Shown piece by piece: positions 125-5,237 of a stretch of DNA of 64,000 nt. The translations under genes were made by a program, and so were the position numbers. Location: contig CAWCTR010000030.1 of the NCBI GenBank assembly GCA_963798485.1, positions 64,001 to 128,000 on the forward strand, given 5' to 3'. Positions within the stretch are counted from its first letter, which is position 1. Each line of letters opens with the position of its first letter. This DNA comes from an uncultured delta proteobacterium (GTDB lineage: Bacteria > Desulfobacterota > Desulfomonilia > UBA1062). Under the pieces are notes generated by a model, which did not search any database, was not told the DNA's origin, and was given only the letters and a program-made list of their open reading frames with translations.

Positions 125-955
125 TTACTCCTCGTGGAGTACGGTCTTGATGATGTAGCTGCCCGACTTTTCGTCCAGCTCCAGCTCCAGCAGGTGCCTG
201 TCCCGCGCCTCTTCCAGGAGGCGGCTGAAAGACCTGAAGCCGTAGTAACTCTCGTTGAAGCCGGGTTTTCTGCGTCTGAGCGCCTGTTTGATCATAGATC
301 CCCAGAGCTTGTCCTCCTCGCCGCGCTCATCGAACAGTGCCTCAACGGTCTCCACCACCAGTTCCAGGGCCTTGAGCTTCCTGTCCTCTTCGGCATTCTC
401 CTTCTGCTCGGGTTTGACCAGGGCCTCATGGGACGGTTTCGCCGGGGGTTTCCTCGCCTTGCGGCGCTTGGCCTCGCTCTCACGGACCAGGTCGTCATAG
501 AAGATGAACTCGTCGCAATTCGCTATAAGAAGCTCGGAAGAAGAGTTCTTCACCCCTACGCCGATGACGAGCTTGTTGTTTTCTCTCAGCTTGCTCACAA
601 GCGGAGAAAAATCAGAGTCACCGCTGATGATTACAAAGCAATCTACATGGGATTTGGTGTAACAGAGGTCCAGCGCATCCACGACCATGCGTATGTCCGC
701 CGAATTCTTGCCGGACTGCCTCAGGTGGGGGATCTCGATGAGCTCAAAGGATGCCTCGTGCATGACCGGCTTGTAGTCCTTGTAGCGCTCCCAGTCGCTG
801 TAGGCCTTTTTCACGATGATGTTTCCCTTGAGCAGCAATCGCTCAAGGATCTTCTTCACGTCGAACTGGGCATATTTGGCGTCTCGAACGCCGAGCGCGA
901 TATTCTCAAAATCACAGAACAATGCCATGTTCTGGGTCTTTTCCAGTACGGCCAT
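125..955 (-). CDS. NYN domain (LabA/DUF88, PIN-like) protein with C-terminal OST-HTH/LOTUS domain
   Basis: ALFCDFEN, GKNSADIRMVVD, ISGDSDFSPL motifs; C-terminal PGFNESYYGFRSFSRLL; AAGGAG RBS before ATG 955. Confidence 0.9.
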   Translation of the reverse strand: MAVLEKTQNMALFCDFENIALGVRDAKYAQFDVKKILERLLLKGNIIVKKAYSDWERYKDYKPVMHEASFELIEIPHLRQSGKNSADIRMVVDALDLCYTKSHVDCFVIISGDSDFSPLVSKLRENNKLVIGVGVKNSSSELLIANCDEFIFYDDLVRESEAKRRKARKPPAKPSHEALVKPEQKENAEEDRKLKALELVVETVEALFDERGEEDKLWGSMIKQALRRRKPGFNESYYGFRSFSRLLEEARDRHLLELELDEKSGSYIIKTVLHEE

Positions 956-1294
956 CAATCGCTCCTTATGGGCAAGTGTACCCTTACCATTGTTAAATCG
1001 TTCATTCCATTTCCCCTGTATCCGCCTTCATATCCGGTCATGACGCGGTATCGCTTCATTCATCCTTTCTTTCTGCAAATGTGTCAAGGTGATAAATCGG
1101 AGGGTGTTTGGATTCAAAAGATTTTATAATGACATGGCCCGGCAAATTGGATGAAGCTGTTCTCATGTATTCGAAAACCCGTACATGTGGGGGAAGGCAC
1201 TGACCTTAAACAATCCACACTCTGAGCCCATCGGGGGATGAGTGATGATTATGGTAAGAAATCCTCAGTCTGGGCTAATCGTGATGTATGGCAC

Positions 1295-1747
1295 CCATTA
1301 AAAGGCCCCTGTCAATAAAAACATAGTTCACCATCGCACTTTTTTTTGCAGGTCTAACGTATAGCCAGCTGGGATCATGCCAACGATTCCCTTTCTGCGC
1401 CCTGTTTTTCATTATGCTCAGGTGACAGATTACAATCTGCACCAGGCACCCATCGGGTTTTAGACTGCACAGCGAGAGGATGAACCTAGATGAGTAGCCC
1501 TCTCAACCCGTACGCCCCTAACAGCATCTGCTGTCCCAGAAAAATATCGGTTCCTTGCCATGTTCAATTGTAAGTGACACGACAATAGGCTCTTCCGGCC
1601 ACACCTTAAAGACTCATGGCAAAGGCAGATCTGAACCATCGGAATTACCTCCACTGGATTCTTGTTTATAAGAGAGGGGTAAACGGCGGAGCAACCACGA
1701 AAATGGTTCTTAGCCACCAAACGTCTGGTCTCGCCGTTTTCCCCTGC
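1295..1747 (-). ncRNA. Putative bridge RNA/seekRNA-encoding non-coding region of the IS (exact RNA ends unknown)
   Basis: Nested stems 1676-1688/1732-1744, 1553-1562/1615-1625, 1454-1459/1505-1510 enclosing 1474-1479/1499-1504, hairpin 1421-1443; ATGGGTG matches the donor end plus core. Confidence 0.7.
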
Positions 1748-2773
1748 TCAGCAAAAGAGCATCTCTTCCTTGAACTCAACGCCATCTCTGAGCATATAGT
1801 AGCAGGCCCTGGCAAGCTTGCTTGCTATGGTCTTGATTGCCACCATCCTGTGAGTTTTCGAAGCCTTCCTTTTGTAGTAGCCGGCAATCTTCGGGGACTG
1901 CCTTAGGGAGATAAACGCCGCTTCAATAAATGCCCAAGCCAGATACCGGTTCCCATTCTTTGCATTGCCTTTGCCCTTGCTCTTCCCGTTCGAAAACCTC
2001 CCGGTAGGAACACAACGGCAGTAAGAGGAGAAGTCTCCCACCCTTGCAAACCGCGAAATATCTCCCACTTCCAGCATGATCGTCATGGCAAGGATGTCAC
2101 CGATCCCAGGAACCATGTGCAGTTTCTCAAAAGCATCCCTCGTCTTCACTTCTCTCTTTACCGTCTTCTCGATATTCCTGATGTTCTTCCCGAGAAAGGC
2201 TATGGTTTCAAGGCTCGTTGTACCAAGGAGAACTAAGTGCTCCTCCTTCAATATCCCTTTGATGTCTTCCGATTTAACCTTCCTCAGTGCATTCGCACTC
2301 ATGTGCACACCGGTGTTCCTCTCGATCATGGACTGCAGCGAGATGATATGGGCTGTTCTTTGCTTTACCAGGAATGATCTCTTCCTCAAGAGATCTCGAA
2401 CCGGTCGCTCTTCCCTGGGATAGATATATCCTTCAGGGAGAATGCCGAGAGACATCATCTGCGCAAGCCAGAAGGCATCATGTCGGTCATCCGCATACTT
2501 GAGCCCTTTGTACTGCTGTATCGCTGCAGGATTGGCAAGATGTACACAATCATACCCTGCCTCATTGAGCCCATCCACCAGCCAGTACCAGTTAAAGGTG
2601 CTTTCGACAGCTATCCCCCTGATCTCTTCACGGTAAGGGTTTAGGGTCCAAACGAGTTCTTCCAGGTTATTCTTTACACGCTTCTCGAAAACTCGCTTCA
2701 TTGTTCCCTTCTCGATCAGCCCTATGTACGTGTTCCCTGAATGGAGATCCAACCCGGCATACAGCTCACTCAT
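1748..2773 (-). CDS. IS110-family DEDD transposase/bridge recombinase
   Basis: GLDLH, AVEST, KYADDRHDA (DEDD RuvC-like); VPGIG HhH; PTGRFSNGK catalytic Ser region; GNRYL; GGAGGAGG RBS. Confidence 0.95.
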   Translation of the reverse strand: MSELYAGLDLHSGNTYIGLIEKGTMKRVFEKRVKNNLEELVWTLNPYREEIRGIAVESTFNWYWLVDGLNEAGYDCVHLANPAAIQQYKGLKYADDRHDAFWLAQMMSLGILPEGYIYPREERPVRDLLRKRSFLVKQRTAHIISLQSMIERNTGVHMSANALRKVKSEDIKGILKEEHLVLLGTTSLETIAFLGKNIRNIEKTVKREVKTRDAFEKLHMVPGIGDILAMTIMLEVGDISRFARVGDFSSYCRCVPTGRFSNGKSKGKGNAKNGNRYLAWAFIEAAFISLRQSPKIAGYYKRKASKTHRMVAIKTIASKLARACYYMLRDGVEFKEEMLFC

Positions 2774-2915
2774 GACACACCTCCTCCTGAGTTATTGTCT
2801 GTATTATAGCCGTGCGATCTTGGCGAAAGTGCCTTTTAGATGATTATCACGTGATCTTCAGTCATGGATAACCAAACATTACCATAAGGATCATCAGAGG
2901 ATGTTACCATGAGGG

Positions 2916-5237
2916 TTAATGATTCTCCAATAAACTATCAAAGTATTCGGTATTCCTCAAGTTGTCCAGATCATGGTCTTTTTTCAGCAGATCCCAGTCA
3001 CTGAAACCTTTCTTTATAGCCTTATCCAGAAAATTTCTCGACTCTTTCAATCCATTCCGTCTGGAGTATATACATGCTAAATTATAATAGACCCCTGGGT
3101 TTTCAGGGGTTATGTTTAGTTCTTTCATCAAATAATCAATGCATCTATCGTATTGCCCCTTCATTGAATAATATACAGCCAAAGAGCTAAGTATCTTCAG
3201 ATCATGTGGATTGTATCTCAAGACATCTTCGAGCTTTGATATGGACGCATCAATCTTTGTCATCTGGGCCATTGCGAAAGCAAGGTTTCTTTGTGCAATG
3301 GTAAGGTCGGGTTTTATTTTCAGGGCCTCATTGTACTGCTTGACTGCCTCACCAACCTGATTAATTCCCATCAAGGAATAGCCGAGATTGTTGTGCACCA
3401 TAGCATGATCTCTATCATCAATGTCATTGCCCAAGAAATAATGCAGTAATGGATTCATCTGGCCTATCTTTAGACCGTCTGTGTAGACTTGAATTGCATC
3501 ATATGAGTTTCCTTGGGCGAGAAGGGTATTGCCGACATTGAGTTTTGCATTAATTGCTAATCTTACCTGCTGGGGACAAAGGGGATTTGGGTTCATTGCC
3601 TTAACATAATTTTTCGCAACTTCAAGATCACCAACCGATAAGGCAAACTTTGTGATGGTATCGGCCTGATATATGCCGACCTTATATACCGATTCTGCAA
3701 TGGTACGTGTATAATGAGATAAATCGGCCCTATTTGATAGAAAGATACATGCTGAAGGCCCATAGTAAACAGGCCTCCAATCTGGTGATGTAATGAAATA
3801 TTGGAATATTGGTTTTTTATAGGAGAGACACCATAGATCACATTTATTTTTATTTAAAAAAAGTTCAATATGTGTTTTATCCTGACTCCATTCGAATTCT
3901 ATGTATTCGGAATACCATCTCCTATAGGGGAAGTATCGTGCGTCAATAAATACTTTTTTTGAGGGCCATAATGACCAAAGTAAATAGGAGCCACAATAGT
4001 AATCATTGCCCATGAGCAGATCTGGAAAATTGGTTCGTATATAATTTGCTTCTGATACTGGGCTAATATAATCAGGGTTCAACCCAAAACCTGGTACGCA
4101 GAAAGATTCATATTGTGCTCTTACAACAATAAATAGCAAAAGAATCAAAGTAATACCATGGAGAACAAATTTCAGTGGCTTTTTAATCGATACTTCTGAA
4201 TCATCTTGAGAAATCTTTTTTATTAAATAAGTAGATGAAAATACGAAAATAACAGCCCAAAAATATGTTGCCCTCAAGTATTTAATGTAGATGATCAGGA
4301 ATAATGCATTTACCAACAGCAGTGCCCAATCAGTTCTATTTCGTCTTAATTGAGCAATCATGAGAATAATGAGTATTCCTAAAGAAACAATCATGTAATC
4401 TATGAAATGAGAATAGTATGCTACAGGGGAAAAGATAGAGAAATATTCAGATACATTTATCATGTGCCCTTTAAATTCTTCAGGATTAATAACAAGATTA
4501 TTTACTAACTGTATCGGGTATCTCCACCCATATGGTGTTATAAGAACAGCAAGACCACTTAATATTATCGATATGAATAAGTGTTTTCTGTCTTGGGGAT
4601 TGAGCTTTTCAGATGAACCGGTAGCTAAGTTGATTACTTCTCCAACAAGAACCAGTCCAAGAAATACTATCCCGAAAATAAACCCGCCATGAGAGTTTAC
4701 CCATAATAACATAAGTAGTGGGAAGAGATAGAAGAGATACCAGTTTTTATCGGGACGGGTCTTGATTCTGAACCATGTCCATACCATAATTGTCATCAAT
4801 AAAAATGAGAAAAGTTCGGCTTTTATACGAAGCCCCCCACGAGACATGAGTAAACCAGTCAGGCATATGAGAAACATCACTGGAAAGAAGCCAGAGTGAT
4901 ATTTTTTAGGATATGAAAAAACAAGCAAAATGAATACCATGATGAACAGATACCTGAGAGCATAAAGCATTTGCAGGCCTCCTGCCTTAAAAAGCAAATA
5001 AAAGAAGATCTCGGGTATCCAAGCACAATAGATCTGGGTATTGTCTGTGGGTGTCCAACTGAAGATAGAATGATCAGGTATTAATGTATGGTTTGCCAAA
5101 AAATATCGACCATAAGCGAGGTGAAACCAGATATCTCCATCATTTATAGGTTCAGCATATTTAAGAGCTATTGTGGCAAGCACTACAATAGCAAGAAAAA
5201 CAAGAAATAATAGGGTACTAAAACGATATCTTCTCAT
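2916..5237 (-). CDS. Polytopic membrane protein (GT-C-like, DxWxHL motif) with C-terminal TPR repeats
   Basis: About 10+ hydrophobic segments, DGDIWFHLAYGR and LWVNSHGGF motifs, TPR repeats (HNNLGYSL, YYNLACIYS); AT-rich; ATG 5237 chosen as start. Confidence 0.65.
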   Translation of the reverse strand: MRRYRFSTLLFLVFLAIVVLATIALKYAEPINDGDIWFHLAYGRYFLANHTLIPDHSIFSWTPTDNTQIYCAWIPEIFFYLLFKAGGLQMLYALRYLFIMVFILLVFSYPKKYHSGFFPVMFLICLTGLLMSRGGLRIKAELFSFLLMTIMVWTWFRIKTRPDKNWYLFYLFPLLMLLWVNSHGGFIFGIVFLGLVLVGEVINLATGSSEKLNPQDRKHLFISIILSGLAVLITPYGWRYPIQLVNNLVINPEEFKGHMINVSEYFSIFSPVAYYSHFIDYMIVSLGILIILMIAQLRRNRTDWALLLVNALFLIIYIKYLRATYFWAVIFVFSSTYLIKKISQDDSEVSIKKPLKFVLHGITLILLLFIVVRAQYESFCVPGFGLNPDYISPVSEANYIRTNFPDLLMGNDYYCGSYLLWSLWPSKKVFIDARYFPYRRWYSEYIEFEWSQDKTHIELFLNKNKCDLWCLSYKKPIFQYFITSPDWRPVYYGPSACIFLSNRADLSHYTRTIAESVYKVGIYQADTITKFALSVGDLEVAKNYVKAMNPNPLCPQQVRLAINAKLNVGNTLLAQGNSYDAIQVYTDGLKIGQMNPLLHYFLGNDIDDRDHAMVHNNLGYSLMGINQVGEAVKQYNEALKIKPDLTIAQRNLAFAMAQMTKIDASISKLEDVLRYNPHDLKILSSLAVYYSMKGQYDRCIDYLMKELNITPENPGVYYNLACIYSRRNGLKESRNFLDKAIKKGFSDWDLLKKDHDLDNLRNTEYFDSLLENH

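Follow-up and report, generated by a model that had tools for sequence, protein, structure and literature searches.

What is encoded in the long non-coding tail of a mobile element, and how is such an element steered to its target? The question is raised by a locus in a stretch of DNA of 64,000 nucleotides (nt) from an uncultured delta proteobacterium (GenBank assembly GCA_963798485.1, contig CAWCTR010000030.1, positions 64,001 to 128,000), which at its full length we call the window. The locus holds an IS110-family element whose recombinase gene is followed by ~456 nt of non-coding DNA (window ~1294-1747), as against ~75 nt upstream of the gene. Our answer, to which we assign a probability of roughly 0.85, is that this 3′ non-coding region encodes a structured guide RNA (a bridge RNA or seekRNA) of ~330-430 nt, read from the gene strand and comprising a target-binding loop (TBL1), a second loop of the same type (TBL2) and a donor-binding module. 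From the sequence we infer that this RNA would be produced, processed and bound by the recombinase.

Coordinates are positions in the window, and element sequences are given in the sense of the recombinase gene (minus strand). For comparison we used the best 80 of ~570 related loci from other genomes along with copies in the same genome, and 86 sources were examined; individual loci are cited by number (L004 and so on). The minus-strand RNA 1289-1760 folds to -161.1 kcal/mol (shuffle mean -145.85, z = -2.71, 3/100 shuffles as good); since this is only mildly better than shuffled sequence, the case rests on the comparison with relatives. Conserved secondary structure is backed by covariation in the TBL1 stem, the TBL2 stem and a helix of the donor module (P3), and by reading of the alignment in a further hairpin (P5).

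The frame of reference for all guides is the core at which target and element are joined. The left junction reads left target, TG, ATAATCAT, CTAAAAGGC, and the right junction GCCTTTTA, ATGGG, TG, right target. Alignment of the junctions with those of the relatives fixes these ends. Since GATnnC and CCA are separated by just one (G)TG at the empty target sites of this genome, TG is the core common to target and element. The initial annotation, made from the letters of the window, had proposed a GTG core; its extra G is the last left-target base in this genome and is C or T in most relatives.

A target-binding loop that changes with the flanks

TBL1 consists of a basal helix, an internal loop and a small distal hairpin (Table 1). 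Its basal helix shows changes on both sides in 9/10 pairs across 25 sequences, with 98.4% of cells paired, and its covariation score of 0.515 was reached by none of 500 shuffles and compares with 0.09-0.16 when the partner columns were slid. A covariance model built on this loop from the homologous non-coding regions (R1) finds TBL1 in 75/86 sources (E<=0.002), 25 of which are its training rows. An apparent absence of the loop from L030, L039 and L062 was rejected: a run-on open reading frame (ORF) had misplaced the stop codons there, and TBL1 is present, as seen by both R1 and reading in L030 and L039 and by reading in L062.

The two strands of the internal loop correspond to the two halves of the target. 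The 5′ strand precedes a small UGG...CCA hairpin and is the reverse complement of the right target, e.g., AAGGGGU with ACCCCTT in L065, AGGUGC with GCACCT in L058, AAGCGC with GCGCTT in L035, GGGUU with AACCC in L028 and, in the window copy, GACGUUUGG with CCA(A/T)(A/T)C... The 3′ strand in relatives repeats the last 4-6 bases of the left target followed by the core (AGGCC-UG, AAGUC-UG, AACU-UG, CGGC-UG), and where it reads AGCAC-CG, in L030 and L039, the right junction likewise has CG. When the TBL1 guides of 23 elements were compared with their cognate flanks (two rows with a stored right flank of <7 nt were dropped), 220/299 positions fitted, against a mean of 131.8 after permutation of the targets. 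Taken separately, the right-target positions gave 114/161 paired (permuted mean 76.2), the left target plus core 106/138 (permuted mean 55.4), and a hand-picked set of 18 representatives of different targets 168/234 (91.0 permuted); in each of these four comparisons the observed value was reached by 0/5000 permutations. The permutations ignore relatedness, and the independent weight of this and the later tests lies in the number of separate target classes and lineages.

These results bear directly on two guide strands that had been picked out from the letters of the window. The strings on which the initial annotation relied are all in place: CCAAACGTC lies at 1717-1725 of the plus strand, with the reverse complement GACGTTTGG, the flank GATGTATGG at 1283-1291, and CACG, i.e., CGTG on the other strand, at plus-strand 1696-1699. 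Its reading of 1717-1725 as a guide to the target flank is borne out by covariation with the right target across relatives, and its CGTG, taken for the other flank plus core, falls inside the strand at 1694-1703 that comprises left target, core and 2 nt and likewise covaries. The loop-versus-target covariation across insertions that it had named as a check is thus what we found.

A multi-loop donor module with handshake-like bases

The donor-binding module repeats the logic of the target loop with the ends of the element in place of the flanks. UGG follows each of its guide strands; a hairpin with changes on both sides of its pairs (P3) and a long, variable one (P4) replace the small distal hairpin of the target loops, which makes the module a multi-loop. 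Its 3′ strand, AUGGG-UG-NN, comprises the last 5 bases of the element, the core, and two bases (NN) identical to those that open the right target. NN matches both flank bases in 50/57 loci, covering the classes AC, CC, GC, TC and AA, a value reached by 0/10000 permutations; the 57 loci are what remains of the 86 sources after 27 without a recognisable end motif and 2 without such a strand, and the 7 misses include L069, where the end is likely mis-set, and L006, a partial copy in an odd site. Searching the downstream sequence blindly for the RNA 9-mer brought out a sixth class, UU against flank TT in L083. Two variants of the element's own end are mirrored in the RNA, AUGGC-UG-AC against ATGGC-TG-AC (element end plus flank) in L085 and AUGUG-UG-GC against ATGTG-CG-GC in L087/88, so the end-reading part of the strand covaries as well. 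The initial annotation had recognized this strand as donor end, core and two flank bases from a single recurrence, that of GGCACCCAT, found at plus-strand 1445-1453 and once more across the element/flank junction (1290-1298); for a given 9-mer within ~450 nt on either strand ~0.003 such recurrences are expected by chance (900/4^9), and the assignment is borne out by the covariation among the relatives just counted.

The 5′ strand of the module is a probable right-donor guide, to judge by its pairing with the left end. It reads GAAGAUUUUC in most relatives and GAUAUUUUUC in the window, and can pair with the core G plus ATAATCAT at 7/9 positions in the main group and 6/9 in the window, with 6-8 of 9-10 positions paired overall. 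Compensatory changes occur at donor positions 3, 4 and 5 (L087/88, L077, L080/89): GAUUUUC accompanies ATAATCAT, GAUCUUC accompanies ATGATCAT in L087/88, and (A/U)CGUUUC accompanies ATACGCAT in L077 and L080/89.

A further feature of these strands is that the bases beyond the core equal those of the reaction partner, i.e., of the target in the donor strand and of the donor in the target-loop strand, and so they could pair only with recombined junctions. The strong covariation of the two bases past the core in the donor strand suggests that they would act as a handshake-type guide, mirrored with respect to that of IS621. In TBL1 the corresponding bases are AU in most relatives, equal to the donor's first bases AT, and GU in the window.

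Directly past the donor strand lies P5, a hairpin kept by compensatory changes (e.g., CAGAU/AUCUG in the window and CGGAU/AUCCG in L004) and represented in relatives by other sequences in a like arrangement. For the long 3′ segment, RNAalifold (23 sequences, 404 columns) yielded a usable consensus for P3 only. Two candidate features of this part were considered: the conserved GAAAUAACGGGUGC was rejected as a second donor guide, since its place is taken by unrelated sequence in the window group and in several other lineages, and pairing of the U-run (1539-1548) with the A-run (1405-1410) is a possible helix for which true covariation was not found. The segment also contains a third AUGG(G/U)G-like string (window ~1327-1338, ~45 nt from the right end), which reads CGAUGGUGAAC here and UGAAUGGGGGA and similar in relatives, and lies beside the internal break of the truncated copy L008.

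A second target-type loop: guide or scaffold

About 50 nt downstream of TBL1, TBL2 displays a like layout of CC, 5′ strand, UGG-hairpin-CC, 3′ strand with UG, and UUGG. Its basal stem shows both-sided changes in 9/12 pairs (31 sequences), and because the G-U pairs of this stem would be A-C on the opposite strand, the RNA sense is that of the transposase gene. R1 touches TBL2 just as weak partial matches in 4 loci (E 0.03-0.08), so that the paralogy of the two loops is founded on common layout and motifs, not on the model score. The strands of TBL2 also track the target: AGGGAC goes with G-TCCC in L030/L039, GUGC with GCAC in L058, AAAGGGGU with ACCCCTTT in L040, and UGUGC with GCACA in L087. 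Its guides fit their flanks at 197/351 positions against a permuted mean of 155.8 (0/5000 reach), and for the right-target strand alone the observed value was reached by 61/5000 permutations. We considered TBL2 as a donor loop and rejected this, in that its strands follow target changes and not donor variants. The initial annotation had spoken of extra domains of unknown role; of these, all but ~1316-1420 and P5 can largely be assigned, to the second target-type loop and the multi-loop donor module.

In two relatives the target loop is itself repeated. L022 (1487-1557 and 1662-1732) and L072 (2521-2591 and 2692-2762) each have two tandem TBL1-type loops, at 63-71 bits each, before the second-type loop. 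The tandem copies differ in their left-target strands, and with the second-type loop these elements would have three target-type loops.

The second loop can be read in two ways. As a working guide, TBL2 would broaden the range of targets or act in one direction of the reaction; alternatively, it would be a scaffold with inherited likeness to the target. According to the latter, to which we give slightly less than an even chance, TBL2 is a structural scaffold or protein-binding module derived from a duplicated target loop, and TBL1 and the donor module do the guiding. The better fit to cognate flanks is that of TBL1 in 18/22 elements and of TBL2 in 2, with 2 ties; the 3′ strand of TBL2 is nearly constant (GAGAUC-UG) in many relatives with different left targets; and its right-target strand in the window fits the sites of its own genome solely after a register shift of 3 nt. 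A single pair of target matches can also suffice, as the 82-nt RNA of ISEc11 with one such pair is enough for transposition in the account of Siddiquee (PMC11187229). Against such a scaffold stand the excess of fitting positions over permuted targets given above and the target switches that TBL2 has followed in separate lineages (L030/L039, L058, L087); moreover, where TBL2 departs from the left target it often has U in place of C, which still permits G-U pairing, and counting wobble lifts the fit from 91 to 114 of 162. The bolder form of the guide reading is that the clade uses a multiplexed bridge RNA, in which two independently evolving target loops (three in L022 and L072) and one donor module would serve several target variants or provide separate loops for insertion and excision, with mirror-image handshake guides setting the direction; this we offer tentatively, as a proposal with about one chance in three of being right.

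DNA sites, coding potential and the remaining difficulties of the guide RNA

A different objection is that the conserved blocks act as DNA, namely as recombinase-binding sites, junction promoter, sub-terminal repeats and internal copies of the end, and not as RNA. The right end with its TTGACA and the inverted repeats are indeed strongly conserved as DNA, and the third AUGG(G/U)G-like string with the L008 break right beside it would suit an internal end copy. DNA sites leave unexplained both the compensatory changes in 9/10 and 9/12 stem pairs with their strand-specific G-U pairs and the loop strands that change together with target bases outside the element, and we consider this explanation of the region very improbable. 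That the region instead encodes a small protein (minus-strand ORFs of 86 aa, at 1460-1720, and 55 aa are listed) is more improbable still, as the ORF listing is purely mechanical, relatives vary by indels of many lengths, and what is conserved are stems whose pairs change in a compensatory way.

Returning to the guide RNA, several observations weigh against it, or against parts of it. The left-target guide of the window, UUUUCG-UG, fits the occupied sites at CG and UG only, with 3/6 at its own site; its fit is better, at 5/6, to GATTTCG-TG-CCA, which with 8 copies is the most frequent of the empty sites. The register shift of the TBL2 right-target strand has to be counted here, too. As to the right-donor guide, besides pairing at only 6/9 positions in the window, donor position 2 is mismatched in every lineage, and L012/13 and the L035 group lack a compensating change. 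In TBL1 the AU beyond the core never varies with the donor, which always starts with AT, so a handshake role for it is mere analogy. Rfam gave 0 matches at E<=1 for window 900-3000. Finally, a single metatranscriptome run (word share 0.09) yielded one 365-nt contig, 96% identical over 1351-1715, for which DNA carry-over is possible and strand and ends are not shown; in the same run no contig of similar identity spans the gene, which is touched only by 45 nt (6 mismatches) and 38 nt (3 mismatches) of contigs otherwise unlike the window. We regard the 365-nt contig as a weak hint of expression of the guide RNA.

Two subtypes in one genome

The same genome supplies a comparison between closely related guides. 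Two subtypes of the element, 87% alike, differ at 54 non-coding positions, and the densest cluster, 7 differences at RNA positions 34-41, is the right-target guide of TBL1. The window-type guide fits its own three sites at 7, 8 and 5 of 9 positions and the two sites of the other subtype at 3 and 3, and the guide of the other subtype fits its own sites at 7 and 8 of 9 and the window-type sites at 4, 3 and 5. We read these subtypes, differing mainly in one guide strand and found at correspondingly different sites, as a natural re-aiming event.

The element, its ends and its target

Table 1. Features of the element and its guide RNA in the window (sequences in the sense of the recombinase gene)
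Feature	Position	Strand	Description
Right target half of this copy	1283..1291	.	RNA sense CCAUACAUC; from junction parsing
IS1111-type element	1292..2849	-	1556 base pairs (bp) = 1554 bp + 2, with the TG core copy counted at each junction
Right end	1292..1315	-	RNA sense: TTGACA 1310-1315, sub-terminal inverted repeat GCCUUUUA 1299-1306, last bases AUGGG 1294-1298, TG 1292-1293
3′ part of non-coding region	1316..1420	-	Conserved motif GAAAAACAGGGCGC 1397-1410, then variable structured stretch
Hairpin P5	1421..1443	-	GGUGCAGAU-UGUA-AUCUGUCACC
Donor-binding module (multi-loop)	1445..1554	-	GGAACC, 5′ strand GAUAUUUUUC 1539-1548, UGG, P3 1520-1535, P4 1461-1519, 3′ strand AUGGG-UG-CC 1445-1453
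TBL2	1553..1625	-	Basal stem CCUU(U)GCCAUG / CAUGGCAAGG; 5′ strand AAGGUGUGG 1599-1607; 3′ strand UUGUCG-UG 1578-1585
TBL1	1676..1744	-	Basal stem GGGG-AAACGGCG / CGCCGUUU-CCCC, internal loop, small distal hairpin; begins 4 nt past stop codon
TBL1 3′ strand	1694..1703	-	Left-target guide UUUUCG + core UG + GU (relatives: AU in place of GU)
TBL1 right-target guide	1717..1725	-	RNA GACGUUUGG; reverse complement of the flank after the core (CCA...)
Recombinase gene	1748..2773	-	341 amino acids (aa); DEDD/RuvC-like and Transposase_20 domains (ORF, Pfam, NCBIfam)
Left end	2831..2849	-	RNA sense: core TG 2848-2849, ATAATCAT 2840-2847, inverted repeat CUAAAAGGC 2831-2839
Left target half of this copy	2850..2862	.	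RNA sense ACUGAAGAUCACG; from junction parsing

The recombinase matches Pfam PF01548 (E 8.7e-10) and PF02371 (E 7.7e-16) and, at 186.7 bits against a cut-off of 140, the NCBIfam model NF033542, 'IS110 family RNA-guided transposase', in agreement with the RNA-guided IS110/IS1111 recombinase that had been proposed for it. At 341 aa it is within the 330-350 aa stated for IS1111 transposases in the text of Siddiquee (PMC11187229). By its protein length, its long downstream non-coding region and its 8-bp sub-terminal inverted repeats (set in from the core by 5 and 8 nt, with GCCTTTTA occupying 1299-1306 and its complement lying within 2831-2839), the element belongs to the IS1111 group of the IS110 family as there defined, for which sub-terminal inverted repeats of 7-17 bp are given. 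These repeats covary in relatives (e.g., CCTTCTA/TAGAAGG and CCTGCTA/TAGCAGG); the left end is kept as TG-ATAATCAT-(C/A)TAAAAGG in most of them, and the right-end motif is conserved in 59/86 sources. The description of the non-coding region as unusually long holds against the 177 nt of the IS621 RNA and the 82/154 nt of the ISEc11 RNAs, and fails for the clade: 456 nt is ordinary there, because the 3′ non-coding regions of relatives span 322-687 nt, in a set of 47 parsed loci of which 41 had the stop placed plausibly by script and a few stops later proved too far downstream.

A search of the linear element for sigma-70-like promoters found none, where 2.2 were expected. Joined ends would set TTGACA 17 nt from GATAAT (the core G plus ATAAT of the left end), and a circle would on this reading carry a promoter of the kind known from the junctions of this family.

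The genome holds 5 full copies of the ~1.56-kb element with different flanks, 3 at 99.8-100% identity and 2 at 87%, together with 3 end fragments whose flanks also differ. The full copies occupy related sites (nnCG-TG / TG-CCA), where nothing but the shared core is duplicated. As target they use the edge of an intergenic repeat of ~110-130 nt that contains ...GATnnCG-TG-CCA-N8-GCTCTGA...TATGTTTCAAnCCAAGATCATCGGTTTT... (window 1180-1291 and 2850-2960; L091-L096). BLAST of both flanks against the own genome gave no long repeat, and the family surfaced through a motif search and alignment: a loose search of the genome with the target-repeat motif has 100 matches, roughly two dozen of them with the longer repeat. 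Rfam returned two sub-threshold Termite-leu matches and nothing else for six copies of the repeat. A location of the target inside a small gene was rejected, and as the ORFs in the W-H frame are short and broken in most copies, we treat the target as non-coding.

Some loci depart from this simple picture. In L030, L039, L053 and L057 the core is TG at the left junction and CG at the right, which could trace an exchange across a mismatched core or a target polymorphism. L007 (G000:C10:122519-122608) and L008 (G000:C22:18512-18562) are mini-derivatives with just the last ~51 or ~89 nt of the right end; they keep both target halves, with the left target and TG fused to an internal TG of the non-coding region, which suggests that the left junction recombined with an internal pseudo-site. 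The partial copy L006 (G000:C14:50152-50703) retains 556 nt of the non-coding end, 89% alike, with a flank of AT... and not CCA..., and ~470 nt beyond it lies L009 (51176-51240), 65 nt that are 95% identical to window flank 2896-2960; together these may represent an internally deleted copy in a paralogous site. In L085, ~100 nt upstream of the transposase start, an intact target (CAAGACC-TG-ACCCCATATTCC) directly precedes the occupied half-site (CAAGACC-TG-element), so the target is tandemly repeated there. The neighboring gene at 125-958 (minus strand) is unrelated to the element and codes for a 277-aa NYN-domain protein (PF01936, E 9e-35), in which an OST-HTH/LOTUS domain (PF12872) scores 23.6 bits, just below the 23.8-bit cut-off.

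Relation to known guide RNAs and a proposed mechanism

The closest described counterparts are the seekRNAs of the IS1111 group in the text of Siddiquee (PMC11187229), those of ISEc11, ISPa11, ISKpn4 and ISPst6 being reported at 82-96 nt (148-172 nt in their long forms) with a single pair of target matches; the RNAs of ISEc11 measure 82 and 154 nt, and its RNA supplied in trans restores transposition of an element without it. The present element resembles these in having the RNA downstream of a ~340-aa DEDD transposase, sub-terminal repeats and a repeated intergenic target; in placing the top-strand match 5′ of the bottom-strand match, with an overlap at the insertion point and no duplication beyond the core; and, to judge from the letters, in a predicted junction promoter on the circle. 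It differs from them in the ~330-430 nt of its predicted RNA, in the two target-type loops and in a donor module that covaries with the ends and the first two target bases. For the IS1111 group, Durrant 2024 (PMC11208160) predicts a bridge RNA in the right end, with the donor-binding nucleotides of many orthologues in a multi-loop, and the donor module at 1445-1554 agrees with that prediction.

With the bridge RNA of IS621, as presented in the texts of PMC11208160, PMC11208158 and PMC13626964, our RNA shares a dinucleotide core, and it would share the reading of target and donor by the two strands of internal loops and two bases beside the core that pair solely with the non-cognate partner after exchange. 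The IS621 RNA is 177 nt long and lies upstream of its gene, with one target loop and one simple donor loop, whereas the RNA here is downstream, longer and has more loops. Furthermore, the strand order of IS621 is opposite and its core is CT, not TG, and its handshake bases are on the guides that bind the top strand, as opposed to those with top-strand sense here.

A downstream IS1111 guide RNA with target matches (PMC11187229) and predicted multi-loop donor bases (PMC11208160) are already in print, and we take the locus to belong genuinely to this known system, as a variant with a multi-target-loop architecture. In the literature text searched, including that of Durrant and Siddiquee, we found no second or third paralogous target loop on one RNA, though figures and supplements might show it, and no handshake-type covariation for the IS1111 group, on which figures and supplements might likewise bear; for Durrant 2024 (PMC11208160) in particular, the text on this group mentions neither a duplicated target loop nor handshake covariation, and its figures and Supplementary Table 5 may differ.

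Combining these strands, the following mechanism may be envisaged. The element would excise as a circle, whose joined ends would form the promoter TTGACA-17 nt-GATAAT and drive transcription of the RNA and of the recombinase gene. Protein and RNA, as a complex, would then recombine the circle junction AAUGGG-TG-AUAAUCAU with a genomic GATnnCG-TG-CCA at the TG. In this step the 5′ strand of TBL1 would pair with the RNA-sense strand of the right flank and its 3′ strand with the other strand, and the donor module would contribute a 3′ strand equal to the element end, TG and two target bases, along with a 5′ strand partly complementary to the first bases of the left end. By the logic of IS621, in which two recombinase dimers, with a target loop and a donor loop, recombine at the core (texts of PMC11208158 and PMC13626964), one dimer would sit on the target loop and one on the donor loop. 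The handshake guides of IS621 favour strand exchange towards insertion and disfavour excision (PMC11208158, PMC13626964, in the same texts); the handshake bases here would likewise favour the insertion direction, on strands opposite to those of IS621.

Implications

Bridge RNAs and seekRNAs are in development as programmable recombinases, and mechanistic knowledge of them comes almost entirely from IS621 and its close kin. The locus and its relatives provide a covariation-derived map of four guide strands, the core and handshake-like positions for an IS1111-type clade of many uncultured lineages. If confirmed, the occurrence in nature of two or three target loops on one RNA suggests that the target range can be widened on one scaffold, and handshake guiding, with the strands swapped, would hold for the other half of the IS110 family as well. 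The two subtypes in one genome would, again if confirmed, be a natural re-aiming event suited to a direct swap of the guide strand.

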